Positions 6,001-40,180 of a DNA stretch of 64,000 nt are shown here, piece after piece. Location: NCBI GenBank assembly GCA_016930515.1, contig JAFGGO010000108.1, forward strand, positions 1 to 64,000, in the 5' to 3' direction. This DNA comes from Promethearchaeota archaeon. Lineage in GTDB: Archaea > Asgardarchaeota > Lokiarchaeia > Sigyniarchaeales > SOKP01. Each line of letters begins with the position of its first letter. Positions within the stretch are counted from its first letter, which is position 1. The translations under genes were made by a program, and so were the position numbers. Under the pieces are notes generated by a model that saw only the letters and a list, made by a program, of their open reading frames with translations, did not search any database and was not told the origin of the DNA.

Positions 6001-7575
6001 TTAAAATTCGTGTTTGTCTATGACAATCGAAGATAAAACCTTGAGAATCTTGAAAGAACCCGAATTTTTAAAGAAAGTTATAAATGGAGTCTTTGGATGC
6101 GTGTTGAAGTAATTATCGTTCCGCATTAATTTTAAAATCCTTATAATATTCAAAAAATTTAAAGTTGGTGTCTGAAAAACGAGAAGATGAATTATTTTCG
6201 TCAATAATAATTTATCTATCTTGAGAATTAAAGATGGTGTGCCGTGGATTTCCGAAACTCTGAATCTTATTGCGGCTAAACTATTATTCTCACCATCAAT
6301 GATTATTTTATCTTTATTAACTGAGTGTATCTTCCTTAAGGCACCATTTTCAAAATCAAACAAGATACTTCTGACTAAACTAGACATTATATTGTTTTTT
6401 CCTTTATTTCCATGAATATCGGTGAATAAAACTAGTATTTTAGCGTTTAAGCCGAACGAACTAAAAATGGCTTGAAAAAAAGTAGTTGGAATCGACCAAT
6501 GCGATAATTTCTTGATATTTAAGTTAAGACCTAAAATTCTCAAGAAAAATCGCTTTAAATTGAATAAAGCTATTCTTGGAGCTCGAAACCAGCGATTCTC
6601 GTAGCTACGCAATCCGAACAGGATCTTTTGCGCAAATAGTTGAAGCACTTCTTTATTTAATGGAAAATCAAGCCCAAACAAATCTAGTGCAATAGATATT
6701 ATGTCCTTAAATTGAAATTGAAAGGCAACATTTAGCTCTTCTTTCTTGAGGATCGTATTCATCGTTTCTTGAGGCTTATCAAGGATGTACTTCATTTTTA
6801 TATCATTAATTGGCGTTATTTTTACTTCAAATGGGATTTTTCCTGAAAAATATTTTCCTTTCGAAAGCTTCATTAAAAAATCGCCTTTTTCATGTCCAAT
6901 TAAAAATCCAATAGATGCTTGGGGTAATAACTCCCCAATCAAGAGGGCCAATTCGGACAGGCGAATATTAGAGAGGATTGATAAGAGATCTTCGAGAAAC
7001 ATTATGACATTTGGTTTAGGATAGAACCAAATCAATTCGTTTTCAACTGCTTCCTGAACGAAATTGAAAAAGTTACGATAATACTCGAGAGTAGAATCAT
7101 AAATATTAGCCGAATATAAATTATTTATCGCAATAAAAATATTTTCTTTAAAAACTCGAATGGAGCTTATTTTTACCTGTCTCTGATTAATAAATATCTG
7201 TTGGAGCTGGGTAAATAACAGTTCCTTATTTTTAAGATCAATATTTTGGTAAGGTGACTTATTATCATTGAATAATTGTAAGGGTATCTTTTCTAATGAG
7301 TCGTGAACTCCTGATTTTTTTGTTTTATATAAGAATGCGTGGGTAATCTTATCTTCATTCTGAGAGATAACGATGTCTAAAATGTTTTGCTGGTCGCTAA
7401 TAAATTTAGGATAAAGGATCTTGGACAGTAAATAAAGTACTGAAGCATTTGCATCTATTGGAGTTAGTGGAATTCGCACTTCAACATCTTCTATCTGTTC
7501 TTTTGACTGAGTTCTTTTTCCGTTATATTCCAAAATCGTTTTCCAGATATTTTTAAATTCCTGATTTATCTCCAT
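6001..7575 (-). CDS. hypothetical protein (524 aa), abuts the DUF362 gene
   Basis: Long ORF; start directly follows the upstream stop; no recognised motif. Confidence 0.75.
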   Translation of the reverse strand: MEINQEFKNIWKTILEYNGKRTQSKEQIEDVEVRIPLTPIDANASVLYLLSKILYPKFISDQQNILDIVISQNEDKITHAFLYKTKKSGVHDSLEKIPLQLFNDNKSPYQNIDLKNKELLFTQLQQIFINQRQVKISSIRVFKENIFIAINNLYSANIYDSTLEYYRNFFNFVQEAVENELIWFYPKPNVIMFLEDLLSILSNIRLSELALLIGELLPQASIGFLIGHEKGDFLMKLSKGKYFSGKIPFEVKITPINDIKMKYILDKPQETMNTILKKEELNVAFQFQFKDIISIALDLFGLDFPLNKEVLQLFAQKILFGLRSYENRWFRAPRIALFNLKRFFLRILGLNLNIKKLSHWSIPTTFFQAIFSSFGLNAKILVLFTDIHGNKGKNNIMSSLVRSILFDFENGALRKIHSVNKDKIIIDGENNSLAAIRFRVSEIHGTPSLILKIDKLLLTKIIHLLVFQTPTLNFLNIIRILKLMRNDNYFNTHPKTPFITFFKNSGSFKILKVLSSIVIDKHEF

Positions 7576-8958
7576 TTAGTTGGTCTCCCCTTTATTTTTC
7601 TTTAATTTTTGACTACATAAAGAGTTTAGAAGCGTCAGTACTGGCATGTTATTCTCGCGAAAATGTTCAAGAAATTGAGGTAAAGCATTTAAAGCCGTTG
7701 GTGGACAACCTTTAATCTCCAAGACATTTTTATTTGGTTTTAATTTTTGTTTTTTCTTTTTTGTTATTTTATCAACCCTAAAATCGCTATCTTTGGTCGA
7801 TTTTATAGCACAATCTCCAAACACAATTATGTTATTTGATTGAGATACTGGTATAGGTGGTTTATCACCAAGTAGAAAAGATGTTTCTGACATGTATTTT
7901 AAGTCCTTTAAAAGTATTGTTTTCAAGAAGTTTAACAAGTAATAAGCTTGCACATGGCATCCAGAACACATCTGACCTTGCAGCACATTAATTTCATTAA
8001 TATGAATGTCCGAGAGTATTTTTTGGCAGGGTTCTACAATTACCCCATAATCCTTGAGAGTACCATCAAGTTGGATTTTTGATAGATCAAAAGAACCCAA
8101 GCCTCTTTGATGGGCTTCGTTTAAAATTTCGTCATTTTCTGGAGCAACATTCAATAAATTTGATGTTATCAAATCCACGCTAAACGCGTCGTTTCCCACT
8201 ACGATTGTTCCCGTTTTTACCATGTTAGAGTCTTTAAAAACGAAGGGTCCTGCGCCTTCTAATATGTAAAAGAGATCGTTTATTATCAAGGTTGGAATTT
8301 TTATCGAATACACATCTACGATTTTGGCCACCATTTCTTTCTTATATTGATCGGTTGCAAGGTATTCTGTATCACATGCTTTGTTACACTTGACTTCTTG
8401 GTCTTCGGGTGATATCAATGAATACGAGTTTAATATTGATGATGTGTGGTGAAAAAGCGGATGGACTTTAACTTGATTGAAAGAGATCAGTTTGTTAGAT
8501 TCTAAAACCGTTTTTGGAATGTAAAAAAGGCGATTGTTCGCGAATATCTTCTCGGAGGTTTGCGATTTCAAAAATTTCTTCTTATCGTCTGTATCTGATA
8601 ATCTATTACTATTATCTAGATAAGCTAGTTCTACGCCAATTTCTTTGAATAATCCTTCCAATCCTAAGGTTTCAGAAATATCCTTGATTGAGGTTCCTTC
8701 ATAAGGAAAACTGCCAACATTGATTTTATTGGCTCCGGCATTTCGACACGCATCAATTAATTCCTTTAATGCGTCAAGATTAACGGTAGTCGGATAAGAT
8801 TTAGGTAAATCCAAGGTAACCTTGATAAAGACATTATCTCCTTTGTCGATATGATTCTGAATTCCACCAATTCTTTCAAGACCTTTTAAAACGCTTTCTT
8901 GAGGCGTTTGTTCTCTAACGATCGCAACAATGGGTTGTTTTAAGTTCGTCGTGGCCAT
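7576..8958 (-). CDS. DUF362-domain Fe-S protein
   Basis: GDNVFIK, N..KVH, EGAGP, D.FSVD; C-terminal CSGC...FGDC...GCPP Cys set. Confidence 0.8.
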   Translation of the reverse strand: MATTNLKQPIVAIVREQTPQESVLKGLERIGGIQNHIDKGDNVFIKVTLDLPKSYPTTVNLDALKELIDACRNAGANKINVGSFPYEGTSIKDISETLGLEGLFKEIGVELAYLDNSNRLSDTDDKKKFLKSQTSEKIFANNRLFYIPKTVLESNKLISFNQVKVHPLFHHTSSILNSYSLISPEDQEVKCNKACDTEYLATDQYKKEMVAKIVDVYSIKIPTLIINDLFYILEGAGPFVFKDSNMVKTGTIVVGNDAFSVDLITSNLLNVAPENDEILNEAHQRGLGSFDLSKIQLDGTLKDYGVIVEPCQKILSDIHINEINVLQGQMCSGCHVQAYYLLNFLKTILLKDLKYMSETSFLLGDKPPIPVSQSNNIIVFGDCAIKSTKDSDFRVDKITKKKKQKLKPNKNVLEIKGCPPTALNALPQFLEHFRENNMPVLTLLNSLCSQKLKKNKGETN

Positions 8959-9616
8959 GTTAAATACTCGAAATAATTTTTATGTATAATTATAGTAGTT
9001 CCAAGTAATTTAATTCTTATTTTTGTGTTTTTTTACACTGGTTTTTTTATTGAAGCTTTTTCATTAACAAAAGTTATATATCTCACAACTCCTATCTATA
9101 ATTGACCCATTTATAGTGTTTTCACGAGGAATTACGATGAATGAAAATCTCCCAATGGGCCAAAAGGGAGCCTTTATTGGCTCCTGCCATATTTGTTTGT
9201 TTCTTAAAGGAAATATGCAATTAATGAATTTTCTTATACTAAATATCAATAAAAAAAAGAGCTCAAGATGTTTTCCGCTTGAAAAAAAAAGAAATACTTA
9301 TATTGGGAGAATTATATTTTCCCAAGGATTTCCTGGAAGCTCCTAGTTCTGGTTGTAGATAATAAACAAGTGTATAGTTTTCTTAATCGATCTTATGCAT
9401 AAAAAACTAAATTATAATACATAACAGGCAATAATTTTTTAAGAAAAAGAGTTATTGAGAATGTGATCATTCACTTTTCTACCATAAACATTTATAAATA
9501 AACGCGATAAATAGTTTTATAAAGCTATAATGTAATTAACCAATTAGCTGCGTGCAAATTCAGAACCTTTCTTATTAATATTAGTGAATGGTTTTTCTTG
9601 CTCTACTAGCGCGCCT

Positions 9617-10301: not shown

Positions 10302-10832
10302 ATGTACATGGCGATAAAAAAAGGAGATATAATCATGGTTCATTATGTTGGAACCTTTGACGATGGATCGGTGTTCGACAGTTCTGAAACACTCGGACGA
10401 CCCTTCAAGTTCGAAGTAGGTGCAGGACACATAATTAAAGGTTTCGACGATTCGGTCCTTGGCAAGGAAGTAGGCGACGAATACTCGATCAGGTTAAAAC
10501 CAAGCGAAGCTTATGGGGAATATCAAAAAGACTTGTTGGGTAAAGTACCAATTAGCAAATTTCCTAAAGACGCAGAGTTAGAACCAGGTATGATGCTACA
10601 AATTATAGATCAACATGGTAACGGTCATTTTGCCACCATAACGGAAGTCACGGAATTAGATGTGAGTTACGATATGAACCACCCAATGGCTGGTAAAACC
10701 CTAAACTTTCAAATTAATATCTTGGAGACTGGATGCGAACCCGACTTTTTCAGCTCTGGTTTCGAAAATGAAAGCCACGACCATTCTGATTGTGGAGATG
10801 GGTGTTGCGACGATTGTGGGCACAATCATTAA
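10302..10832 (+). CDS. slyD: FKBP-type peptidyl-prolyl isomerase, SlyD-like, with His/Cys metal-binding tail
   Basis: VHYVGTFDDGSVFDSS, P.EAYG, DMNHPMAGKTLNF; tail HDHSDCGDGCCDDCGHNH. Confidence 0.93.
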   Translation: MYMAIKKGDIIMVHYVGTFDDGSVFDSSETLGRPFKFEVGAGHIIKGFDDSVLGKEVGDEYSIRLKPSEAYGEYQKDLLGKVPISKFPKDAELEPGMMLQIIDQHGNGHFATITEVTELDVSYDMNHPMAGKTLNFQINILETGCEPDFFSSGFENESHDHSDCGDGCCDDCGHNH

Positions 10833-10923
10833 TTATTTTTTATTTATACTTTTTATTGCTCTCATTATTAAAATTAATTTACAAATGAAATTTCTAAATC
10901 TCAATTAGATATAACAAATCAAA

Positions 10924-11252
10924 GGGGTCGAACCTATTATTACTTATAAAATTCTATCCATTACACATGAAAATAGGAGATGCGTGTCGATTATTGCAGG
11001 TAACAAAAGTTTCCCTTTATAAATATCAGAAAGAAGGGAAGATCTCGGGACACGAGCTTCCTAATGGTTATTGGAATTGGGATGATGAATTGATATATTC
11101 CTATTTTAATAAAAGTGTTAGTTCCCACAGCCTTCACTGGCAATGGAATAGCGGCGATGGTGTTATCTCCCCGAATTATTAAAATTTGCTGATATTTCCC
11201 GATTTTATACGATTCTTAATAGAACTTTATAAGTTAAACGGGTTCTAATAAC
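10924..11252 (+). mobile_element. internally deleted IS607-like element (tnpA N-terminus joined to tnpB C-terminus); ends approximate
   Basis: 10967-~11118 encodes a MerR-like HTH typical of IS607 TnpA (MKIGDACRLLQVT..SLYKY.KEGKI....LPNGYWNWDDE.IY); the +1 frame at 11121-11192 reads VPTAFTGNGIAAMVLSPRIIKIC*, like a TnpB C-terminus; TTATA-containing repeats near both ends. Confidence 0.7.
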
Positions 11253-11315: not shown

Positions 11316-11534
11316 TTATTTGTACTTGATCGCCAAGAGAAGGTCGTTCTTCGTGATCTTCTTTCTGTTTGCGTGCATGGTGAACGCTCGAGCTTGTTCG
11401 GTAAGTCCAGTTGCAGTTTTCTCCAAGTGATCAATTAACAAGTCAACTGCGTTTCGGGCCACGATAGAAGCTCCTTGTTGTTTCATGAGTCGTCTGATTG
11501 GCGACCACGCAAAACTGTGTTTCTTTTTTGCCAT
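11316..11534 (-). CDS. archaeal histone (HMf-like fold) with a short basic N-terminal extension
   Basis: PIRRLMKQQGA.IVA..AV...HANRKKITKNDLLLAI; GGAGG SD; 72 aa. Confidence 0.95.
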   Translation of the reverse strand: MAKKKHSFAWSPIRRLMKQQGASIVARNAVDLLIDHLEKTATGLTEQARAFTMHANRKKITKNDLLLAIKYK

Positions 11535-12013
11535 AATTCATTCCTCCAATTTTTTTTTTAAAACGTTAGTTTTTAATTTATTTTTAATTTATTTTTTATA
11601 GTTCTTAGTTAATAATATATGGGAAGAGATATTTAAATGTTTTGTAGGGTTACGGTAAAATTTCGGAACTTTAACGAAAAAATTACGACAATATTTTTTT
11701 GAACATCATTAAAGGGCAATTTTTCTGCCAACATTCCATTGGTGATCACCAAAAAAAGCATGCATAATTTATTTTTAACATGGGTCGATCCACGCTCGAA
11801 CAAGGTTATATCGCCATTAGACACTTTTTTCTTAGAATAGTTAGGACCGATAAAAAAAATAAGATCAAGAAAAATTGCATTACTATGAAATAAAAATGCG
11901 AATTTCGTGATCGTTCAAATCAAGTTATGATGGATATTGCATTTATGAATTATACATATCTTGGAGACTATTGTCTAGAATATAGTGCCTATAGAGATCA
12001 TAATAAAAGTTAG

Positions 12014-12163
12014 AAAATTAAAGATGTTTTCATCAATCATATATTAATATTAAAAGTCATAAACAATTCACAAGGACATATTTGGGTTGAAGATAGGATA
12101 AAAGGAGACCATTCAAGAGGAAGTAATTTCGTAATAATCCTTCCAGATAAATTAAATCACTAA
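12014..12163 (+). pseudogene. remnant of a sensor histidine kinase HATPase_c C-terminus
   Basis: Start-less frame KIKDVFINH...GHIWVEDRIKGDHSRGSNFVIILP*. Confidence 0.7.
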
Positions 12164-27460: not shown

Positions 27461-28450
27461 ATGAAGATTTATTTAGTCGACAAGGGAGAACTCAAGCAAA
27501 TTGACAAGTTAGTGTTTTCTACAGGCGATGTATACTTAATCGACGACGAAAAGACCATTTTCATATGGATTGGGAGCAAGTGTAGCGTTGACGAGAAAAC
27601 TAGTGGTGCCGCTCAAGCACGAAAGCTCGATCAAGAGCGTGGAGGTGCGGCTAAGATAATAACGGTTGATCAAAATCAAGAAACTGCTGAATTCCTCAAG
27701 CTCATTGCGAGCAAGGGTACTATGAAAATCGTGGAAAAAAATATTGCCAAGACTATGTTGAAAGATGTGATGACAGGCGATTTTGCTGGTTTTACAGAAC
27801 ATGTAAATGTACTTTATCGGGTTTCCTCCGAAGAGTTCGAAGACATCAATGCGATGAAAATGATACAAGTTCCGTTTTCGAAAGACTCGTTGGATTCCGA
27901 AGATTGTTTCGTGTTAGATATGGGTACGGATGTGTATGTTTGGCAAGGAAATGCTTGCAATGTAAAGGAAAGGGTCAAATCTGGCCAATGGGCAAGACAA
28001 ATTGATGCGGATCGCGCAGGAGAGCAAAACAAAACCATTTGTGAAGAAGGCGACGATGCGGCTTTTCTTTCAGCTTTAAGCAAGGGTGAACACTACAAGG
28101 AATCTGACGCCGTCCAACTTTCTGCTGATTCTGATTTAGAAAAGGAATCCGAGATGGACAAAATCGCAGCATCCGTTCATAAAGAACACGAGGCGACAAT
28201 TAGTGACGCCGCTCCCGAAACCTCAGAATCAAGCGCGTCTTCTGCCGGACCCGGCATACCCGGATCGTCTGATGGATTACTTACCATCGAAAAGATGGAA
28301 GGTCGTCGGAGGTGTCCAAATTGTGGAAACGAAAACAAGTCTTTAATTCACGAATCTGTTGACAAGGGAAATATTATTCTCGATTATCCACGAATGTATG
28401 GTAAAAAATACAAGTGTGGAGAATGTGGTCAAGAGTGGAGAGAAAAATAA
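27461..28450 (+). CDS. two-domain gelsolin (Asgard 2DGel-like) with an acidic linker and C-terminal Zn ribbon
   Basis: GDVYLID...IFIWIGSKCSVDEK; SLDSEDCFVLDMG.DVYVWQG.ACN.KER; CPNC...CGEC. Confidence 0.9.
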   Translation: MKIYLVDKGELKQIDKLVFSTGDVYLIDDEKTIFIWIGSKCSVDEKTSGAAQARKLDQERGGAAKIITVDQNQETAEFLKLIASKGTMKIVEKNIAKTMLKDVMTGDFAGFTEHVNVLYRVSSEEFEDINAMKMIQVPFSKDSLDSEDCFVLDMGTDVYVWQGNACNVKERVKSGQWARQIDADRAGEQNKTICEEGDDAAFLSALSKGEHYKESDAVQLSADSDLEKESEMDKIAASVHKEHEATISDAAPETSESSASSAGPGIPGSSDGLLTIEKMEGRRRCPNCGNENKSLIHESVDKGNIILDYPRMYGKKYKCGECGQEWREK

Positions 28451-29858: not shown

Positions 29859-30380
29859 CTAATTTAAGGTGTTGTAATCCTTCGTGAACACATATTTTCT
29901 ATCTAAAAAGAACTTTACAGTGTATCCAATAACTAAAGCCACGATCATGCTAAGTTCCAACGGGCTATTAACAAAGTTTGTCATTAGAAATTGAATTCCA
30001 ATGTTTAGAAGAGTTGTGAGAATGGCAAAAGCAAAATACTTAAAAAATTCCTGAGAAGTATCCTTGATGTTACTACCACTTTTTTTAAAGACCACATATT
30101 TATCCAAGAAAAATTTTATAATATAACATATACCAACAGCAACAATAGACCCTAAAAGTTCTGCCATATTAATTGGATCAATGGAACAATAGAGAGTGTG
30201 GATGAATTCCAAATGACCAAAATTGTTACATATATATGGATAAAGAAATATCTGGTTGGTTTTCTGTATCAAGTAATTAAGTACAATCATTAAAAGAGCA
30301 AATATTAAGTAAATAACCAGTTGCTTATGTACTTCTCTTTCTCGTAAAACGCCCCAATTAATTCCTTTTTCTTTTGACAT
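29859..30380 (-). CDS. GtrA-family membrane protein
   Basis: Duplicated KFFLDKYVVF / KFFLDRKYVF; EFFKYF.FA. Confidence 0.85.
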   Translation of the reverse strand: MSKEKGINWGVLREREVHKQLVIYLIFALLMIVLNYLIQKTNQIFLYPYICNNFGHLEFIHTLYCSIDPINMAELLGSIVAVGICYIIKFFLDKYVVFKKSGSNIKDTSQEFFKYFAFAILTTLLNIGIQFLMTNFVNSPLELSMIVALVIGYTVKFFLDRKYVFTKDYNTLN

Positions 30381-30394
30381 GGTTTATCAATTGT

Positions 30395-31024
30395 TTATAG
30401 AATTCTCTTTTTCCAAGAATCGCTAGTATTAACATCATTAGTGTCATCTGCTATGTGATCAATTTCTTCGGTTTTGGAGAAATTATTCTGTAATATTGGC
30501 CCGCGAATATTCACTCGATTTATCTCGTCATCTTCTCTTCCCATGATCTGTTTGATTATCGAAGTCTTCTTGTCTTCCTTACCTGTAAGCTTTAAATAAA
30601 ACTTTTTTACACCATAAAATAATAGCGACAACCCGATGGCAAATAAGAAATAAAGAGCTGCCCAACCGCTACCAAAAAATAATATTGGAAACGGAAAAAT
30701 TCCAGATCGATAATTAAAAAATACAAAATTATCGAGTATGAAGAATAAAATGAGGAAAACAATACACCTCCCACAGGCAGGTATCAATTGCTTTTTCACC
30801 ATGGATTTCATCAATTGGGTGACCTCCGTCTGCAATTGGCGCATCATGTAAGGATCGTTCAATATCTGAGCGTTGTGCATCCTCTCTTGAAGATTCTTGG
30901 TCTTCTCTCTAAATTCTTTTAACTTTTCTGGATTTTGACCTATAAATTTATTGAGAATTTTGTTAATTAAAATAAATACCAAAGTTATAAAGAAAACAGC
31001 GAGTATTATCAATTCGATTTCCAT
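30395..31024 (-). CDS. EMC3/TMCO1/DUF106 (Oxa1-superfamily) membrane insertase-like protein
   Basis: TM1 - cytosolic coiled coil with Met-rich end (MMRQLQ..QLMKSM) - TM2; PFPILFFGSGWAALYFL. Confidence 0.8.
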   Translation of the reverse strand: MEIELIILAVFFITLVFILINKILNKFIGQNPEKLKEFREKTKNLQERMHNAQILNDPYMMRQLQTEVTQLMKSMVKKQLIPACGRCIVFLILFFILDNFVFFNYRSGIFPFPILFFGSGWAALYFLFAIGLSLLFYGVKKFYLKLTGKEDKKTSIIKQIMGREDDEINRVNIRGPILQNNFSKTEEIDHIADDTNDVNTSDSWKKRIL

Positions 31025-32203: not shown

Positions 32204-32566
32204 ATGATGGAAACAGTTGGGAAATGGGAGAATTACAAGGGACAACAAATTCTCATATGCGATTATAGAAATTTAAGAGGAAAAGAGTATATAGCCGCAA
32301 TCGAAGAGAATTTATCTAATGCTAGACGATCTAATAGAACAGATCTCTTGATTTTAACGGATATCAGGGATAGTGTCGTAGATGTAGAGGTTTCTAACAA
32401 GTTAAAAGAGTTAGCAGGTGACATAAAAAAAATCACAAAAAAAATGGCCATTGTTGGATTAACTGGTTTGAAGAAGTTAATGCTGAAATTCCTCAACAAG
32501 GTAGCTTCGATGAATATTAAACCTTTCGAGGATATAAATGTTGCTAAAGAGTGGTTAATTCAATAA
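32204..32566 (+). CDS. STAS/SEC14 (SpoIIAA-like) domain protein
   Basis: YKG..IL..DY..L, LILTD, K.AIVGLTG.K, F....AKEWL. Confidence 0.75.
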   Translation: MMETVGKWENYKGQQILICDYRNLRGKEYIAAIEENLSNARRSNRTDLLILTDIRDSVVDVEVSNKLKELAGDIKKITKKMAIVGLTGLKKLMLKFLNKVASMNIKPFEDINVAKEWLIQ

Positions 32567-33998: not shown

Positions 33999-34373
33999 TT
34001 GTCAGAATTCGAACAAAATGTAATACAAAAATTAAACGAGATAAACCAAAAGCTTGATAAATTATTAATTCAAAAACCCCCTACGCCCGCACCTGCGGTT
34101 GCAACCACTGTCCCTGTTTCGCAAACATCTACTTCAACTCAAGTATCTGCTTCACAACCTACAAATGTGAGCCCATCAGCCGTTGTAGAAAGGCAGATTG
34201 AGGAAGAAAAGTTGGTTGAAAAGCCTCCCGTTGAGGGAAGGCGAGTGTGCCCGGATTGCGGGAACACTACATTTAACCAAATTGAGGATAAGACACAAGT
34301 CCTTTCCATGATGGGAGGGATTAAGATCTATGCTAAAAAATATGTTTGTAAGAAATGCGGTAAAGAGATGTAA
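33999..34373 (+). CDS. short coiled coil + Pro/Thr/Ser linker + Zn ribbon (same ribbon type as the gelsolin tail)
   Basis: EGRRVCPDCG...EDKT...IYAKKYVCKKCGKE; AAGGAG SD; TTG start. Confidence 0.8.
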   Translation: MSEFEQNVIQKLNEINQKLDKLLIQKPPTPAPAVATTVPVSQTSTSTQVSASQPTNVSPSAVVERQIEEEKLVEKPPVEGRRVCPDCGNTTFNQIEDKTQVLSMMGGIKIYAKKYVCKKCGKEM

Positions 34374-34489
34374 GATCACCTAAATTCCACTTTTTTTATT
34401 AAGTGTTTTTTTCCCTTTTATATTAACATATAAAACATTAAAAACCACCAATCCTTGAGAGATCATACACATTAAATACGGTGAATTAA

Positions 34490-35137
34490 ATGAGTTTGCT
34501 ATTAGATAAAATTAAAGGCTTAATTGGAGGAAACGAACTACAAGAAATCATAAAGGATTTTAGCGATATAATCAAAATTGAAACTAATATGATAAAATCC
34601 TCAAAGGAACGGATCTCAAGTCTTCAAAATTACGCTAAAGTCGAGACACCAACTCTCAGAGAAGCAATAGAGTCCTTAGGAGAAACCTTCGAAAATATCG
34701 ACGGTGCAAGGGAAGAAAAGATCGACCAAATGCACGATAAGTTCTTAACACCATTGAACGATTTATTGGAAGAATTTAAGGAGTTATCTACGGAGTTAAA
34801 AGAATCGGAGAAGGCCAAAAAAGACTTGGAGAAAGCAAAATCCAAGCTTACCAAGCTTAAATCAAAACCCAAGGAAAAATTAAAGCCGGGTCAAATGGAA
34901 AGCGCAGAAACTGCCGTAAAGGATGGTGAAACAAAAGTACAGAAAGAAGAAACTGAAGCCAAAGAAGCGAGCGTACAATTTAATCGGAAAAAAGTATCAA
35001 TCTTAAAGGCCGTTCTTGAAGATATTATAACCATCGAAAAAACTTTTCACGAAAAAGTAATTAATTTGATTAATCCCGCCCAAGAAAAAGCTAAAGCAAT
35101 CGATTTAGATGAAAAACCTGCAGAAGTTCCTGAATAA
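34490..35137 (+). CDS. BAR-domain protein, FAM92/CIBAR-like
   Basis: 215-aa three-helix pattern; YAKVETPTLR, KFLTPL kink, Lys-rich tip, FNRKK...IITIEKTFHEK...IDLDE. Confidence 0.75.
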   Translation: MSLLLDKIKGLIGGNELQEIIKDFSDIIKIETNMIKSSKERISSLQNYAKVETPTLREAIESLGETFENIDGAREEKIDQMHDKFLTPLNDLLEEFKELSTELKESEKAKKDLEKAKSKLTKLKSKPKEKLKPGQMESAETAVKDGETKVQKEETEAKEASVQFNRKKVSILKAVLEDIITIEKTFHEKVINLINPAQEKAKAIDLDEKPAEVPE

Positions 35138-36054: not shown

Positions 36055-36474
36055 TTATAGTGGTTCAAATCCAAGATCAATTCGTGGATTCTCTCCTGGA
36101 AGGGGCGTTTCTAAAAACTTAACTTTTACGGGTGTATCTATTTCGATTGTTTCTGGTTTTGACTCGTCCACTCCTACGAGTTGAGCAGACACCATCGGTC
36201 CTTCGTCAAGCTTAATAACGCTAAAACAGTACGGTTTATTTTTCGAATAACCCTTATCAACGAAAAATTTAGTTCCCACGCTAATGCACGTAAAGGCGGC
36301 TATTTTTCCCTTTCCCGACATTTCGGTCCATTCCATCTCAGTAGAACCACATTTCGTACAGAGTTTTCTTGGAGGTGCAAATAATTCCCCGCAACTTTTG
36401 CATTTCGAACCCATTAACTTCTTTTGGTTAATATAATCCAAGTAATTATATACAGTTATTTCTTTTTCAGACAT
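36055..36474 (-). CDS. DUF35/ChsH2-type Zn-ribbon OB-fold protein (thiolase partner)
   Basis: KCKSCG..FAPPR.LC.KC, SGKG.I..FT, KLDEGP; AGGTGA SD favours ATG 36474. Confidence 0.9.
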   Translation of the reverse strand: MSEKEITVYNYLDYINQKKLMGSKCKSCGELFAPPRKLCTKCGSTEMEWTEMSGKGKIAAFTCISVGTKFFVDKGYSKNKPYCFSVIKLDEGPMVSAQLVGVDESKPETIEIDTPVKVKFLETPLPGENPRIDLGFEPL

Positions 36475-36487
36475 TCTTTGCATCACC

Positions 36488-37747
36488 TTATTTTTGATAT
36501 ATTGTGACCACGCAAGTTCCTCCAGAACCTCCTAAATTATGCGTTAAGGCTCTTTCGACATCAAATTTAACTTGACGGTTTCGTTCGGCTCGTCCTCTCA
36601 TTTGCTTGAAAATCTCGACCGCTTGTGCGGCACCAGTGGCTCCAACGGGATGCCCCTTCGATTTCAAACCTCCAGAAGTGTTGATAGGGCGCACTCCGTC
36701 TCGTCGACTTTCCCCATTCTTCACGGCTTCGGCTGCTTTTCCTTTCTCATAAAAACCCAAGTCTTCCATTGCTAATATTTCTGCAATCGTAAAGCAATCG
36801 TGTACCTCAGCAATTTGCATGTCTTTAGGTCCGAGACCGGACATTGAATAGGCTTGCTTTGAAGCTTCTTTCGTTGCGATAAAACTCGTTAAGGTATCTC
36901 GGTCGTGTAGCGATAATGCCGCGCTTCCCTGTCCCGTACCGGTGATCCATAGGGGCGTGTCCGTGAACTTTCTTGCCAACTCTTCCGAGGCGAGGAACAC
37001 GCACGCTCCGCCGTCCGTAATTAATGAACAATCGAACAATCGTAATGGAGAAGCGATATAAGGATTAGCCGAACTTGAAAGAAAATCAATCTCGTCTTTC
37101 CAGTAGGGGACTTGCTGACCTTGACTTTCCGCTCTTTTTATTTTGCTTTCCATTATGTCTTTTATGCTTTGCTGCATTTGAGCAAAGGGGTTTTCCTTGC
37201 CGTTTTCATGGTTTTTTATTCCCACTCTCATGAGATCTTCTGGTTTTGTGCCATATTTATGAAAGTGAGCGGACGCAACAGCTGCATATAATCCTGGGAA
37301 TGTTGCTCCTGCAGGATATTCGTAAGTTGCATCTGCTGCTGCCGCCAATGCGTCAGTCACCATGGTCGTAGGTACTTCCGACATTGTTTCAATACCACAT
37401 ACGGCAATTAATTCGTGAACACCGGAAGCTATGCCCAAGATTGCTTGCCTCAAAGCTATTCCGCTGCTTGCGCAAGCACCTTCAAATCGGGGTGCTGGTT
37501 TTGGTGTAAGACCTACTAAATTCGCCATATTTGGACCTAAATGCCCCTGGTGATTAAATAGATCTGCAGTGAAATTTCCCACGTAGCAGGCGTCCACATC
37601 TTTGGCTTCAATACCATTATCAACACTTTTCACGGCGTCAATCCAAGCATCGACCCACAAATCGGGATTCCTCTTTACGGGAAAGTGCTGTCCGAACTTA
37701 CTCATTCCGGCACCGATCATCGCTACTTTTCTTGCTAATTTTCCCAT
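36488..37747 (-). CDS. thiolase-domain protein (SCP2/archaeal acetyl-CoA C-acyltransferase type)
   Basis: EGACASSG, DCSLITDG, EVHDCFT, NTSGGLKSKGHPVGATG, HNLGG. Confidence 0.93.
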   Translation of the reverse strand: MGKLARKVAMIGAGMSKFGQHFPVKRNPDLWVDAWIDAVKSVDNGIEAKDVDACYVGNFTADLFNHQGHLGPNMANLVGLTPKPAPRFEGACASSGIALRQAILGIASGVHELIAVCGIETMSEVPTTMVTDALAAAADATYEYPAGATFPGLYAAVASAHFHKYGTKPEDLMRVGIKNHENGKENPFAQMQQSIKDIMESKIKRAESQGQQVPYWKDEIDFLSSSANPYIASPLRLFDCSLITDGGACVFLASEELARKFTDTPLWITGTGQGSAALSLHDRDTLTSFIATKEASKQAYSMSGLGPKDMQIAEVHDCFTIAEILAMEDLGFYEKGKAAEAVKNGESRRDGVRPINTSGGLKSKGHPVGATGAAQAVEIFKQMRGRAERNRQVKFDVERALTHNLGGSGGTCVVTIYQK

Positions 37748-37849: not shown

Positions 37850-40180
37850 TTAATTCCTTTCTTTTACTGGCATAAATATTTTAAAAAAATCCCGTTTTAC
37901 CTTGACATTACCTTGAAAGTTAACAATCATCCGATTACCTGAAAGGTTAACGGCGTGGAAACTACTGTAATTTCGCCCAAATCCTATAAAAGTAACAATA
38001 TCTCCATTATTTAGATTAGAGTCCAATTTAGAGGAATCTTTTATTCTTAAAAAGGTTCCAGATTTCAAATCTTCGAGCGAATTGATATTATGAATCGTTG
38101 CGAAAGAAAAAGAACCCGAATAATTTTCAAAAATGTAATCGTGAAGTTGCTTAAGTGGTTTTTTTTCGATTTTAATGGTTTCTCCCTTGATTCCCCTTTT
38201 TGCTATCAATAATGCCGCAATGGCGTGATCCACGAAACCTTTTGCTCTCACTTCGTTCACCAACTTGCCTTGTTGTAAATGAAACATTGCTTCTTTAGTC
38301 GTTTTAAATTCGTCTACTAAAAAGATATCGGGCGGTTCGAAGCGATTTTTTAGAGGTACATTTTCTTGTTCCATTCCTTCTAAATCGTTCAGGTTAGATT
38401 TTACGCAGGATAAATTATCGCAAGGTATACCAAAATATTCAATGAAAAAATCGATGATAAAATCGGAACCAGGACCGTGCCCCACGAAAATCTTGTTGAT
38501 CAATTCCTTTTTTTCGCTAAAAAACAACCCGAGTTCTTCTTCGATTTGCTGTTTTGCAACGCTTTGAGATCTAAGGTCCTTGATGTTGCTCTTTAAATTC
38601 ACATACCATAGTTCTGGCAATTCTCCGTGTTGGATGAGACAAAATCCAAAATGTCTCGTCCCAGGATCTACGGCTAATATCACTTCTTTTTGCTTAAATG
38701 TAAAGAGGTTGATGTCTGCCTTTCCTTTAGATATTTTCATCAATGAATTGAAAAAAGGTTCGAACTCTTGGTTTTTAATTTGTAGAAAAAAATCATGAGC
38801 TTGACTTTGGTAAAGCACTTCGATGTTGTATTTTTCGATTAAGGAAAAAAGATCGTGGTAATTTTCAACTTTCACAATGATATCTTGGCGAGGATCTATT
38901 TTAATTATTTTAACTTTCTCTACTGCTTTTGCTATGGCTTGGGCAATGTCGTCCTCGTTCTTTCCCGAAAGAATGTCCACATGAAGTCCGTCTAGATGGA
39001 ACGCTTCGTAAGCCGTCGAAGCACCTAGTAAATCGAAAAGTCTCTTTTCTTGGTTCCCCCCTCTTGAGATTGTTAATTTTTTTCTCGTTCGTGGGAAGAT
39101 TCTCACGCTTGCCGAGTTATATTTCCCCTTGCTAGGTGCATTTATCGTGATGACTCCTTTTAATTTTGAACTAATTACTTTAAATTCAATGAGATCTTCT
39201 AATTTCTCCTTTATGAAATCGAATTGGAGATCGCCAAGAACTAATATGTTAATATTTTTATTGTTTACAAAGAAATCAAAGGATGTAATTACTTTTTTCA
39301 GGTTTTCAAGGATCTCTGTCGCAATCTTAAATTTTTCGGGATCGTCAATATTAATTACGAATTCCTTGCGAGGATGTAAGTTGGACAAAAGCCCTGTTGT
39401 CTTGGGTGGTATGAATTTGCCATCATGATATTGGGTTCCTAGTTCAAACTCATTTTTTACATTTAGGCTAATCGTGACAATTTCGCCTTCAAGTGCCTGC
39501 TTTAAAGGAGAATTAGCCAGAGAAACCACTTGTCTTATCTTGATTTTATCGTTTAACCATTGTCCTGATTTTAAGGCTCCAGAAGTAAGACCAATGTTCA
39601 GCATCTCGCCAAGACCTTTCCGTTGTTTAAATCCTAATATTACAAAGGCCAATTCAGAATTTTCAAACTCTCTTTTTTTAAGATGAACGGAAATCCTTTC
39701 AATTAAATTCTCAATCCCCGTGATCTTTTTTGCAGATGTTTGGATTATCGGAATTCTTTCTTTCCCAAGCTTTTTTAACTCTGAATTGATTCTTTCAACA
39801 TTCGAATTAGGTAAATCCATTTTTGTTGCTGCGATGATGATAGGTAAATCTCTTTCCCGAGCTTTTTCGTAAAGCCAGTGTGTTCTAGCTTGGAAACCGT
39901 CCGTTCCAGAAATAACCAGTACTAAAAGGTCTGCAAATTCCAATCCCAAGGCAATACCTCCTTGAAAGTCGGCGTGACCCGGAGTGTCTAAAAAATTAAG
40001 CGTTAAGCTTTGTCGTTTCAAAACGAACTGAATGACCTTGAGGGACACCGTCGTACCGTGAGAAAGCTCGTAATCTAAATTATCGGGAAACTTTCCTACT
40101 ATTGCCTCAATCAAGCTTGATTTGCCGTGTTGAGCGTGTCCAGCAACTAGAACATTTAAAATTCTTTCCTTAGTAACCAT
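37850..40180 (-). CDS. translational GTPase (compact EF-G/EF-2-like domains I-V) fused to a YqgF/RuvX-like RNase H-fold domain
   Basis: GHAQHGKS, E..HGTT, DTPGHADF, TKMD, TSAK; domain III LGDLQFDFIKEKL; ILAVDPGTRHFGFCL, VGHGPGS, VDEFKTTKEA, VDHAIAALLIA. Confidence 0.85.
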   Translation of the reverse strand: MVTKERILNVLVAGHAQHGKSSLIEAIVGKFPDNLDYELSHGTTVSLKVIQFVLKRQSLTLNFLDTPGHADFQGGIALGLEFADLLVLVISGTDGFQARTHWLYEKARERDLPIIIAATKMDLPNSNVERINSELKKLGKERIPIIQTSAKKITGIENLIERISVHLKKREFENSELAFVILGFKQRKGLGEMLNIGLTSGALKSGQWLNDKIKIRQVVSLANSPLKQALEGEIVTISLNVKNEFELGTQYHDGKFIPPKTTGLLSNLHPRKEFVINIDDPEKFKIATEILENLKKVITSFDFFVNNKNINILVLGDLQFDFIKEKLEDLIEFKVISSKLKGVITINAPSKGKYNSASVRIFPRTRKKLTISRGGNQEKRLFDLLGASTAYEAFHLDGLHVDILSGKNEDDIAQAIAKAVEKVKIIKIDPRQDIIVKVENYHDLFSLIEKYNIEVLYQSQAHDFFLQIKNQEFEPFFNSLMKISKGKADINLFTFKQKEVILAVDPGTRHFGFCLIQHGELPELWYVNLKSNIKDLRSQSVAKQQIEEELGLFFSEKKELINKIFVGHGPGSDFIIDFFIEYFGIPCDNLSCVKSNLNDLEGMEQENVPLKNRFEPPDIFLVDEFKTTKEAMFHLQQGKLVNEVRAKGFVDHAIAALLIAKRGIKGETIKIEKKPLKQLHDYIFENYSGSFSFATIHNINSLEDLKSGTFLRIKDSSKLDSNLNNGDIVTFIGFGRNYSSFHAVNLSGNRMIVNFQGNVKVKRDFFKIFMPVKERN

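Follow-up and report, generated by a model that had tools for sequence, protein, structure and literature searches.

A probable relative of eukaryotic CIBAR/FAM92 among the BAR-domain proteins of a Lokiarchaeial order

Analysis of a 64-kb stretch of DNA from a Promethearchaeota archaeon (contig JAFGGO010000108.1, positions 1 to 64,000; the whole stretch is referred to as the window) revealed a gene at 34490..35137 on the forward strand which very probably encodes a stand-alone classical BAR protein of a Lokiarchaeial family, the nearest relatives of which outside the archaea are the eukaryotic CIBAR/FAM92 proteins. In eukaryotes the banana-shaped BAR dimer serves to sense membranes and to bend them, and it is one of the few tools they have for membrane shaping; CIBAR/FAM92 is the BAR protein of the ciliary base and of the mitochondrial inner membrane. 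The gene touches the central question of whether membrane sculpting was already possible for the archaeal host of eukaryogenesis.

The gene is an open reading frame of 215 codons with an ATG start, in a window with a G+C content of 33%, and the sequence GGTGA is found at 34480-34484, 5 nt before the ATG. It is present as a single copy in the host genome, a metagenome-assembled genome (MAG) of 4.0 Mb in 190 contigs with 94% completeness and 5.3% contamination, and its closest homologues carry the label Promethearchaeota archaeon. Since the source contig is 96 kb long, its synteny is shared with several Promethearchaeota MAGs and the Pfam FAM92 profile passes in Asgard genomes but in no control genome (see below), the gene is considered to be genuinely archaeal. 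A search with Rfam revealed no RNA family within the whole 64-kb window.

Sequence relationship to CIBAR/FAM92

An earlier note, made from the sequence alone, had proposed an archaeal BAR-domain protein resembling FAM92/CIBAR by comparing short segments with FAM92A, and this was borne out by Pfam, phmmer, profile and hhalign searches as well as by the predicted fold. All the segments it had picked out are present in the protein, namely MSLLLDKIKGLIGG (residues 1–14), YAKVETPTLR (48–57), KFLTPL (84–89), KSKLTKLKSKPKEKLK (117–132), FNRKK (164–168), IITIEKTFHEK (179–189) and AIDLDE (203–208), and the strings it had given for FAM92A (YAATETPHLK, KVVEPL, FERQK, FITIEMLFHGK and NIDEDE) were all identified in PDB 8ceg_A, column for column with the archaeal segments.

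Two of the three Pfam profiles that the note had pointed to scored above their curated cut-offs: FAM92 (PF06730; E = 5.3e-10, 39.6 bits against a gathering score of 23.6), with residues 16–208 aligned to profile positions 30–222 of 225, and BAR (PF03114; E = 5.8e-10, 39.7 bits against a cut-off of 28.5), with residues 48–194 aligned. The third, Vps5 (PF09325), was absent among the 23 Pfam families matching the protein at E ≤ 10, and IMD (PF08397) stayed below its cut-off (17.4 bits against 26.2, E = 0.0033).

When the protein was compared by phmmer with all PDB sequences, the only strong matches were the BAR domains of CIBAR1/FAM92A (8ceg, 2.9e-9; 9uhd, 3.7e-9). A profile of 19 close homologues matched CIBAR1 at 5.4e-15 and 1.3e-13, amphiphysin at 0.029 and endophilin-B1 at ~0.06, which leaves a gap of 12 orders of magnitude between CIBAR1 and every other solved BAR protein. 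An exhaustive phmmer search of 1.84 billion protein representatives gave 89 clusters, 55 of them below 1e-10, and even in its weakest tail 18 of the 20 matches scanned pass the Pfam FAM92 cut-off (with up to 352 bits); among the tail matches scanned, P0105 is another BAR type and two gave no Pfam match. The named matches in this tail are all eukaryotic, being CIBAR1/2 or FAM92 of the abalone Haliotis, fishes, a bat, an acoel, the choanoflagellate Didymoeca, Pigoraptor and the breviate Pygsuia.

Alignment of the archaeal family with 20 eukaryotic CIBARs by hhalign gave a probability of 99.3% (E = 8.4e-21) over 195 nearly gapless columns. Overall identity of the archaeal BAR proteins to eukaryotic CIBAR is 17–24%, with identity at the level of motifs in Y-x-x-x-E-T-P, P-L, F-x-R-x-K, I-T-I-E-x-x-F-H-x-K and I-D-x-D-E. 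These comparisons support homology to CIBAR over almost the entire domain and, judged by sequence, the protein is closest to CIBAR among the BAR subfamilies and the link is specific.

Predicted fold and dimer

A monomer model built with AlphaFold2 (AF2) from a 65-row alignment has a predicted local distance difference test score (pLDDT) of 92.4 and a predicted template modelling score (pTM) of 0.79, with long helices at residues 14–49, 54–124 and 135–202 and a short helix at residues 2–11 (pLDDT 44). The features of the gene are as follows.

34490..35137, forward strand: gene of the CIBAR/FAM92-like BAR-domain protein, 215 aa (open reading frame, Pfam, CIBAR1 as top sequence and fold match, hhalign, single copy)
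34490..34531, forward strand: short N-terminal helix with a K-I-K motif, residues 1–14, MSLLLDKIKGLIGG, a candidate H0-type membrane-inserting segment of putative function (AF2 helix, hydrophobic moment, conservation of the motif)
34529..34636, forward strand: BAR helix 1, residues 14–49, central dimer interface (AF2 model, predicted interface, Y48 invariant)
34649..34861, forward strand: BAR helix 2, residues 54–124, directly preceded by the ETP turn and carrying the R74 and P88-L89 motifs (AF2 model, invariant columns)
34832..34891, forward strand: Lys-rich distal tip, residues 115–134, net charge +8 (charge scan, turn between helices 2 and 3, FAM92A alignment)
34892..35095, forward strand: BAR helix 3, residues 135–202, its C-terminal half forming the second dimer interface (AF2 model, predicted dimer)
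35096..35134, forward strand: acidic C-terminal tail AIDLDEKPAEVPE, kept in the closest subclade (alignment, charge)

Searching the PDB with Foldseek placed mouse FAM92A's BAR domain (9uhd) first, with TM values of 0.80/0.81 and a root mean square deviation of 3.1 Å, followed by human FAM92A1 (8ceg), and at least the 50 top matches were all BAR-superfamily domains. By class, TM values were 0.7–0.8 for classical BARs, 0.47–0.53 for I-BAR and 0.3–0.5 for F-BAR.

In the alignment of 19 close homologues the columns Y48, E52, P54, R74, P88 and L89 are invariant, R74 being the sole near-invariant column across the wide family. The Lys-rich tip described in the earlier note was recovered as the most positive 20-mer of the protein (residues 115–134, +8), situated at the turn between helices 2 and 3, which is the tip of the arm in the model, and K115, K119, K122, K126, K130 and K132 are invariant in the close family. 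The C-terminal tail, with a net charge of -4, has its counterpart in the alignment in I-D-E-D-E, the end of the BAR domain in FAM92A. As to the amphipathic N-terminal helix also described there, residues 2–11 are indeed predicted to be helical, though with low confidence, and amphipathicity is only moderate, so that an H0-type helix is plausible and the assignment tentative. Of the 71 archaeal members 42 carry a [K/R]-hydrophobic-[K/R] motif within the first 16 residues, as against none of 20 eukaryotic ones.

Prediction of a homodimer gave an interface score (ipSAE) of 0.75 in three runs against 0.00 for the best control, with a contact agreement of at least 91% and a partner pLDDT of at least 85; the mark applied to this score is reached by 20 of 30 proteins solved as one-chain pairs and by 1 of 23 solved as single chains. 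The two copies are predicted to meet in a symmetric interface (30:30, 187:187), on whose two-fold axis the pair H187:H187 lies. It consists of residues 10–63 and 161–210, corresponding to helix 1 and to the C-terminal half of helix 3, the arrangement seen in BAR dimers. The three-helix monomer and antiparallel dimer that the earlier note had anticipated thus both appear in the models, and a symmetric antiparallel homodimer through these helices is predicted. Since BAR dimers have been solved, the result may partly reflect a memory of solved structures, and it may be read as likeness to BAR dimers, not as proof of pairing by this protein.

Independent support for the homodimer comes from natural tandem BAR-BAR fusions in the same family, represented by NEF87_003839 of Candidatus Lokiarchaeum ossiferum (451 aa) and by forms of 444–553 aa elsewhere; a model of the L. 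ossiferum protein gave a pTM of 0.78 across both halves (451 residues). Being a single-domain form, the protein described here needs a second copy to dimerise.

Comparison with the mapped residues of FAM92A

Dimer and lipid-binding residues of mouse FAM92A have been named (PMC12269497), the latter in regions 1–5, which make up its positively charged concave face. Adding 65 to the chain index of 9uhd reproduces every residue named, so the phmmer alignment can be read in mouse numbering, with the following result (FAM92A residues first, then those of the archaeal protein).

Dimer residues L113, Y127, F256, I257 and H264: M34, Y48 (invariant), I179, I180 and H187; kept as equivalents, all in the predicted interface
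Dimer residue L120: R41; not kept
Region 1 (central patch) R108, K109, R112, R114 and K116: K29 alone in register, 1/5
Region 2 (distal cluster) R201, R203 and R205: K122, K124 and K126; 3/3 basic
Region 3 K176, K178 and R179: K97, L99 and S100; 1/3
Region 4 K169, K183 and K194: N90, K104 and K115; 2/3

Near the central patch K36, K39 and R41 are found at neighbouring columns; region 5 of FAM92A lies beyond the alignment.

Distribution and phylogeny

A profile search identified the family in 25 of 301 sampled Asgard genomes, all belonging to two families of one order. With the host genome left uncounted, 20 of 68 genomes in the first of these (f1) and four of seven in the second (f2) harbour it, the f2 genomes as tandem forms, and the 225 genomes searched from 28 other Asgard families yielded no member. 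In six-frame searches the eukaryote-built Pfam FAM92 profile picks up these loci again, with scores above its cut-off, in 20 of the 301 Asgard genomes and in none of 14 controls, scoring 38.6 bits in the host genome. The corresponding search with Pfam Vps5 gave no match in the host genome and none above the cut-off in the 301 Asgard genomes, for which reason the tree was built with a single long-branch outgroup, P0105.

The maximum-likelihood tree (85 rows, LG+C20+F+G4, quick search) places the 20 eukaryotic CIBARs in one clade, with a Shimodaira-Hasegawa-like approximate likelihood ratio (SH-aLRT) support of 100, on a long stem of 1.89 changes per column and with all archaeal rows outside. 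As the CIBAR clade excludes every archaeal sequence, the protein is a relative of the CIBAR family and not a CIBAR orthologue. With the single outgroup, this free quick tree had nested the eukaryotic CIBARs within a 50-row archaeal set (SH-aLRT 99), but the claim was dropped because the approximately unbiased (AU) test did not reject archaeal monophyly (p-AU 0.66) and the constrained tree was 7.2 log-likelihood units better. It is sound to regard the archaeal family and CIBAR as each other's nearest relatives, be it through vertical descent into eukaryotes or through an old transfer.

Such a transfer, in either direction between a eukaryote and the Lokiarchaeial order, would keep the kinship but deprive CIBAR of the status of a vertically inherited eukaryotic signature protein, and we consider it the less probable course, though one to be taken seriously. 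It would agree with the confinement of the family to two families of one order among the sampled Asgard genomes, with the fact that all named eukaryotic matches belong to Obazoa and with the long eukaryotic stem on a tree whose root is unplaced. The depth and diversity of the archaeal family, on the other hand, speak against a recent import, and the eukaryotic sequences form a single clade instead of being scattered among the archaeal ones. Moreover, the Obazoa list consists of matches reachable from an archaeal query and does not delimit the range of CIBAR in eukaryotes, and absence from MAGs is weak evidence.

Within the archaeal family pairwise identities go down to ~22–25%, and tandem, HEAT-fused and paired-gene forms occur. 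Metagenomic members near the eukaryotic clade are located on compact contigs with the Asgard hallmarks Roadblock/LC7, Arf-family GTPase, Urm1 and Cdc6. In locus L040 two BAR paralogues of the family are found as separate genes (7110-7790 and 7834-8334, both on the forward strand) with 43 nt between them; they could form a heterodimer pair or represent a stage before or after tandem fusion. In L038 Roadblock/LC7 genes (8798-9145 and 10814-11191) flank the distant member P0058, annotated by JGI as 'FAM92 protein', on both sides, and in L039 an Arf-family small GTPase gene (11441-12049, reverse strand) lies 1.8 kb downstream of a 553-aa tandem BAR gene, with Urm1 1.7 kb upstream. In the metagenomic P0057 (467 aa) HEAT repeats at the N-terminus (Pfam E = 1e-39) are fused to a BAR domain of the family at the C-terminus. 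Two apparent fusions were discarded: P0095, named 'Zn-ribbon protein' by its source and first taken for a BAR and Zn-ribbon fusion, is a eukaryote-like FAM92 sequence with a low-complexity acidic tail and no ribbon, and an open reading frame in L032, in which the Zn-ribbon is joined with a weak Vps5-like match, consists of a Gln-rich coiled coil and a ribbon with no BAR domain.

A conserved Zn-ribbon neighbour

Directly upstream of the BAR gene a small gene encodes a zinc-ribbon protein.

33999..34373, forward strand: protein of 124 aa in which a conserved helix of 22 aa at the N-terminus is followed by a Pro/Thr/Ser linker and, at the C-terminus, by a CPxCG...CxxCG zinc ribbon, the conserved upstream neighbour and a candidate partner or adaptor
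34374..34489, forward strand: intergenic spacer with runs of seven T at 34391-34397 and 34406-34412, an AT-rich TATA-like stretch at 34417-34435 and GGTGA at 34480-34484 (sequence)
27461..28450, forward strand: gelsolin of two repeats, loosely associated, with this Zn-ribbon module at its end (Pfam Gelsolin, E = 2.9e-30)

Throughout the closest subclade, the Zn-ribbon gene is found directly upstream of the BAR gene, in the window as in L002, L004, L006 and L013 despite rearranged flanks, and ~2.5 kb upstream of it in L009/L010. In L039 a 521-aa coiled-coil paralogue with the same terminal ribbon is located directly upstream of the distant tandem BAR gene. According to a look-up in the ESM Atlas, the family of small Zn-ribbon proteins is confined to Promethearchaeota. 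The gelsolin, whose ribbon match is situated at 28295-28435, is found at the same relative place in L002. Since GGTGA and the AT-rich part of the spacer are kept in three relatives, the sequence suggests that the BAR gene has a promoter of its own.

The neighbour invites comparison with Chibby (CBY1), the 15-kDa partner of CIBAR, in which the N-terminal 22 residues bind the BAR dimer and a C-terminal coiled coil dimerises (PMC12269497). The 124-aa protein is of similar size and layout, with a short N-terminal helix, a disordered linker and a C-terminal module, and it is genomically tied to the BAR gene; it has however no sequence similarity to Chibby and carries a zinc ribbon instead of a coiled coil, so the likeness is one of analogy only. 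Pfam Chibby gave no match on the 124-aa protein, and no Chibby homologue was found in the host genome (best E = 0.46, 12.2 bits against a cut-off of 24.8, with control genomes scoring equally). A physical partnership between the Zn-ribbon protein and the BAR protein is possible, with the balance of judgement leaning somewhat against it.

Possible function and alternative readings

If the protein works as classical BAR domains do, the dimer would bind the anionic archaeal membrane through its Lys-rich tips (K115–K132), possibly also through the N-terminal K-I-K helix, and would sense or stabilise positive membrane curvature. Actin-filled protrusions are the visible membrane specialisations of Loki cells (PMC9834061, PMC13716822), and likely sites of action would be their necks, bases or constrictions and not the inside of their shafts. 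More speculatively, the upstream Zn-ribbon protein might be an adaptor recruiting or regulating the BAR protein, in a Chibby-like role without kinship.

Several observations weigh against this interpretation, or against parts of it. Membrane binding itself we infer from family membership, given how classical BAR domains are known to behave (PMC12269497). Taken as a whole the protein is acidic, with a net charge of -6, and the central lipid-binding patch, described as the most intense positive region of FAM92A (PMC12269497), is basic at only one of its five aligned columns (K29), which calls for caution as regards membrane binding. The N-terminal helix is ordinary, with a hydrophobic moment of 0.42 and a mean hydrophobicity of 0.31 for residues 2–11 (rank 85 of 205 11-mers), and one dimer residue of FAM92A, L120, is replaced by R41. 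Pfam BAR scores as high as FAM92 on the protein, and among the 65 members of the wide family FAM92 was matched by 32 at E ≤ 0.001 as compared with 25 each for BAR and BAR_3. For the proposed adaptor, the ribbon module is present in 12 copies in the host genome, mostly at the C-terminus of coiled-coil proteins of 239–447 aa, no Zn-ribbon neighbour was found in the flanks of the clade with 36–43% identity nor in L038/L040, and the two T runs and the TATA-like stretch lie between the Zn-ribbon and BAR genes.

The fold could also serve mainly as a cytoskeletal or protein scaffold, or the protein could be an I-BAR/IMD-like former of protrusions which binds negative curvature and actin. The weak IMD match below its cut-off, a central basic patch that is not kept, a candidate partner sharing its ribbon with gelsolin and the outward protrusions formed by Loki cells all point in this direction, as do two BAR-domain proteins of L. 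ossiferum recovered, below significance, by co-immunoprecipitation with Lokiactin (PMC13716822). We nevertheless hold it to be improbable, as the model resembles classical BARs (monomer TM 0.7–0.8) far more than I-BAR/IMD (~0.5), IMD stays below its gathering score and the distal basic cluster of FAM92A is kept as Lys.

An equally low estimate is given to a more ambitious scheme, in which the archaeal family would be the direct ancestor of CIBAR and the Zn-ribbon protein would dock its N-terminal helix on the BAR dimer, the ribbon, also present on the neighbouring gelsolin and on ten other proteins, linking the BAR scaffold to a Lokiactin-regulating network. If true, it would mean that membrane curvature and actin dynamics are coupled at Asgard protrusions, by a prokaryotic precursor of the CBY-CIBAR module found at the base of cilia.

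Still less credit can be given to the view that this is a generic BAR protein with no special kinship to CIBAR, FAM92 merely being the most tolerant profile. The near-equal Pfam scores and the family-wide counts given above would fit such a view, and so would the Foldseek E-values of SNX, APPL and amphiphysin, which lie within two orders of magnitude of that of FAM92A. But the FAM92 match spans the whole domain (193 residues) and the BAR match only 147, CIBAR1 matches the family profile at 5e-15 but amphiphysin only at 0.03 and endophilin at 0.06, the weakest tail of the exhaustive search consists of FAM92 in 18 of 20 cases with only one other BAR, and both the hhalign result (E = 8e-21) and the identity of motifs single out CIBAR. 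That the similarity is an artefact of coiled coil or composition, or that the reading frame is no real gene, is effectively refuted already: the protein is indeed Lys/Glu-rich and all-helical, with low-scoring coiled-coil families in its Pfam tail, yet conservation is position-specific across 19 close and ~60 distant homologues, E-values go down to 8.4e-21 with low bias, the fold is predicted with confidence and the gene is kept in synteny.

Comparison with known systems

Returning to the reading as a classical BAR protein akin to CIBAR, the closest known counterparts are CIBAR1/FAM92A and CIBAR2/FAM92B (PF06730; 9uhd, 8ceg; PMC12269497, PMC11266426). The proteins are colinear over ~195 residues and share the three-helix BAR fold (TM 0.80), a predicted antiparallel homodimer through the same helices with five of six mapped dimer residues equivalent (the two-fold-axis His among them), the distal basic cluster and the acidic I-D-x-D-E end of helix 3. 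The archaeal proteins however lack the long disordered N- and C-terminal extensions and have instead the short N-terminal K-x-K helix, absent from 20 of 20 eukaryotic sequences; the central Arg/Lys patch is not kept in register, and the host has no Chibby homologue, cilium or mitochondrion.

The tandem protein of Ca. L. ossiferum (P0022, NEF87_003839) belongs to the same family (E = 9e-42), each half aligning to the entire BAR protein, but the cultured species carries a two-in-one tandem whereas the protein here is single-domain and from a different genus. With the N-BAR proteins amphiphysin/BIN and endophilin (PF03114) it has in common the classical BAR fold (TM 0.71–0.77), a passing Pfam BAR score and, ahead of helix 1, a short basic and hydrophobic stretch at the N-terminus; the kinship by sequence is much weaker (profile E = 0.03–0.06), the archaeal protein has no SH3 or other appended domain and its H0 is only a candidate. 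The Thorarchaeial Vps5-BAR, sometimes fused to Vps28, has been described as an Asgard retromer-like eukaryotic signature protein (Eme et al. 2023, PMC10307638) and is likewise of the BAR superfamily, but represents a different subfamily and lineage from the family of the Loki order.

Citations of a 'putative BAR domain protein' from Lokiarchaeum go back to 2015–2016 (PMC4917890), in agreement with the earlier note's correct remark on BAR-like proteins there, and two BAR-domain proteins are reported from the Lokiactin co-immunoprecipitation in L. ossiferum mentioned above. In databases the L. ossiferum protein is tagged 'BAR domain-containing protein' by UniRef, one member is tagged 'FAM92 protein' by JGI and precomputed Pfam assignments list PF06730. 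No publication pairing FAM92/CIBAR with archaea or Asgard was found in the library searched. BAR proteins in Lokiarchaea are thus already published, which limits the novelty, and the kinship to CIBAR is the part for which no paper was found.

As a specific relative of CIBAR/FAM92 the BAR family of the Loki order gains a concrete eukaryotic comparator with solved structures, and with mapped dimer and lipid-binding residues to guide the design of precise mutants. In the cultivated Ca. L. ossiferum the tandem form could be localised by imaging relative to the actin-filled protrusions, and the conserved Zn-ribbon neighbour offers a first candidate partner.

Other genes in the window

On the reverse strand at 36055-37747 a thiolase (419 aa) is paired with a DUF35/OB-fold zf-ChsH2 protein (143 aa). 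In four related loci this pair adjoins the Zn-ribbon/BAR pair in either orientation, often together with a DSPc phosphatase, and the arrangement may be shared synteny only. The gene at 37850-40180 (reverse strand) encodes 776 aa, with an EF-Tu-type GTPase domain at the N-terminus (Pfam E = 6e-29) and a long C-terminal part without a family; it is kept in L002 and absent from the syntenic L004 and L006.

At 32204-32566 (forward strand) a 120-aa protein gave a borderline match to the SpoIIAA-like (STAS) family, with 24.8 bits against a cut-off of 25. A weak EMC3/TMCO1-like membrane protein (30395-31024, reverse strand; 22 bits, below the cut-off) is situated beside a GtrA-family protein (29859-30380, reverse strand), and both are kept in L002.

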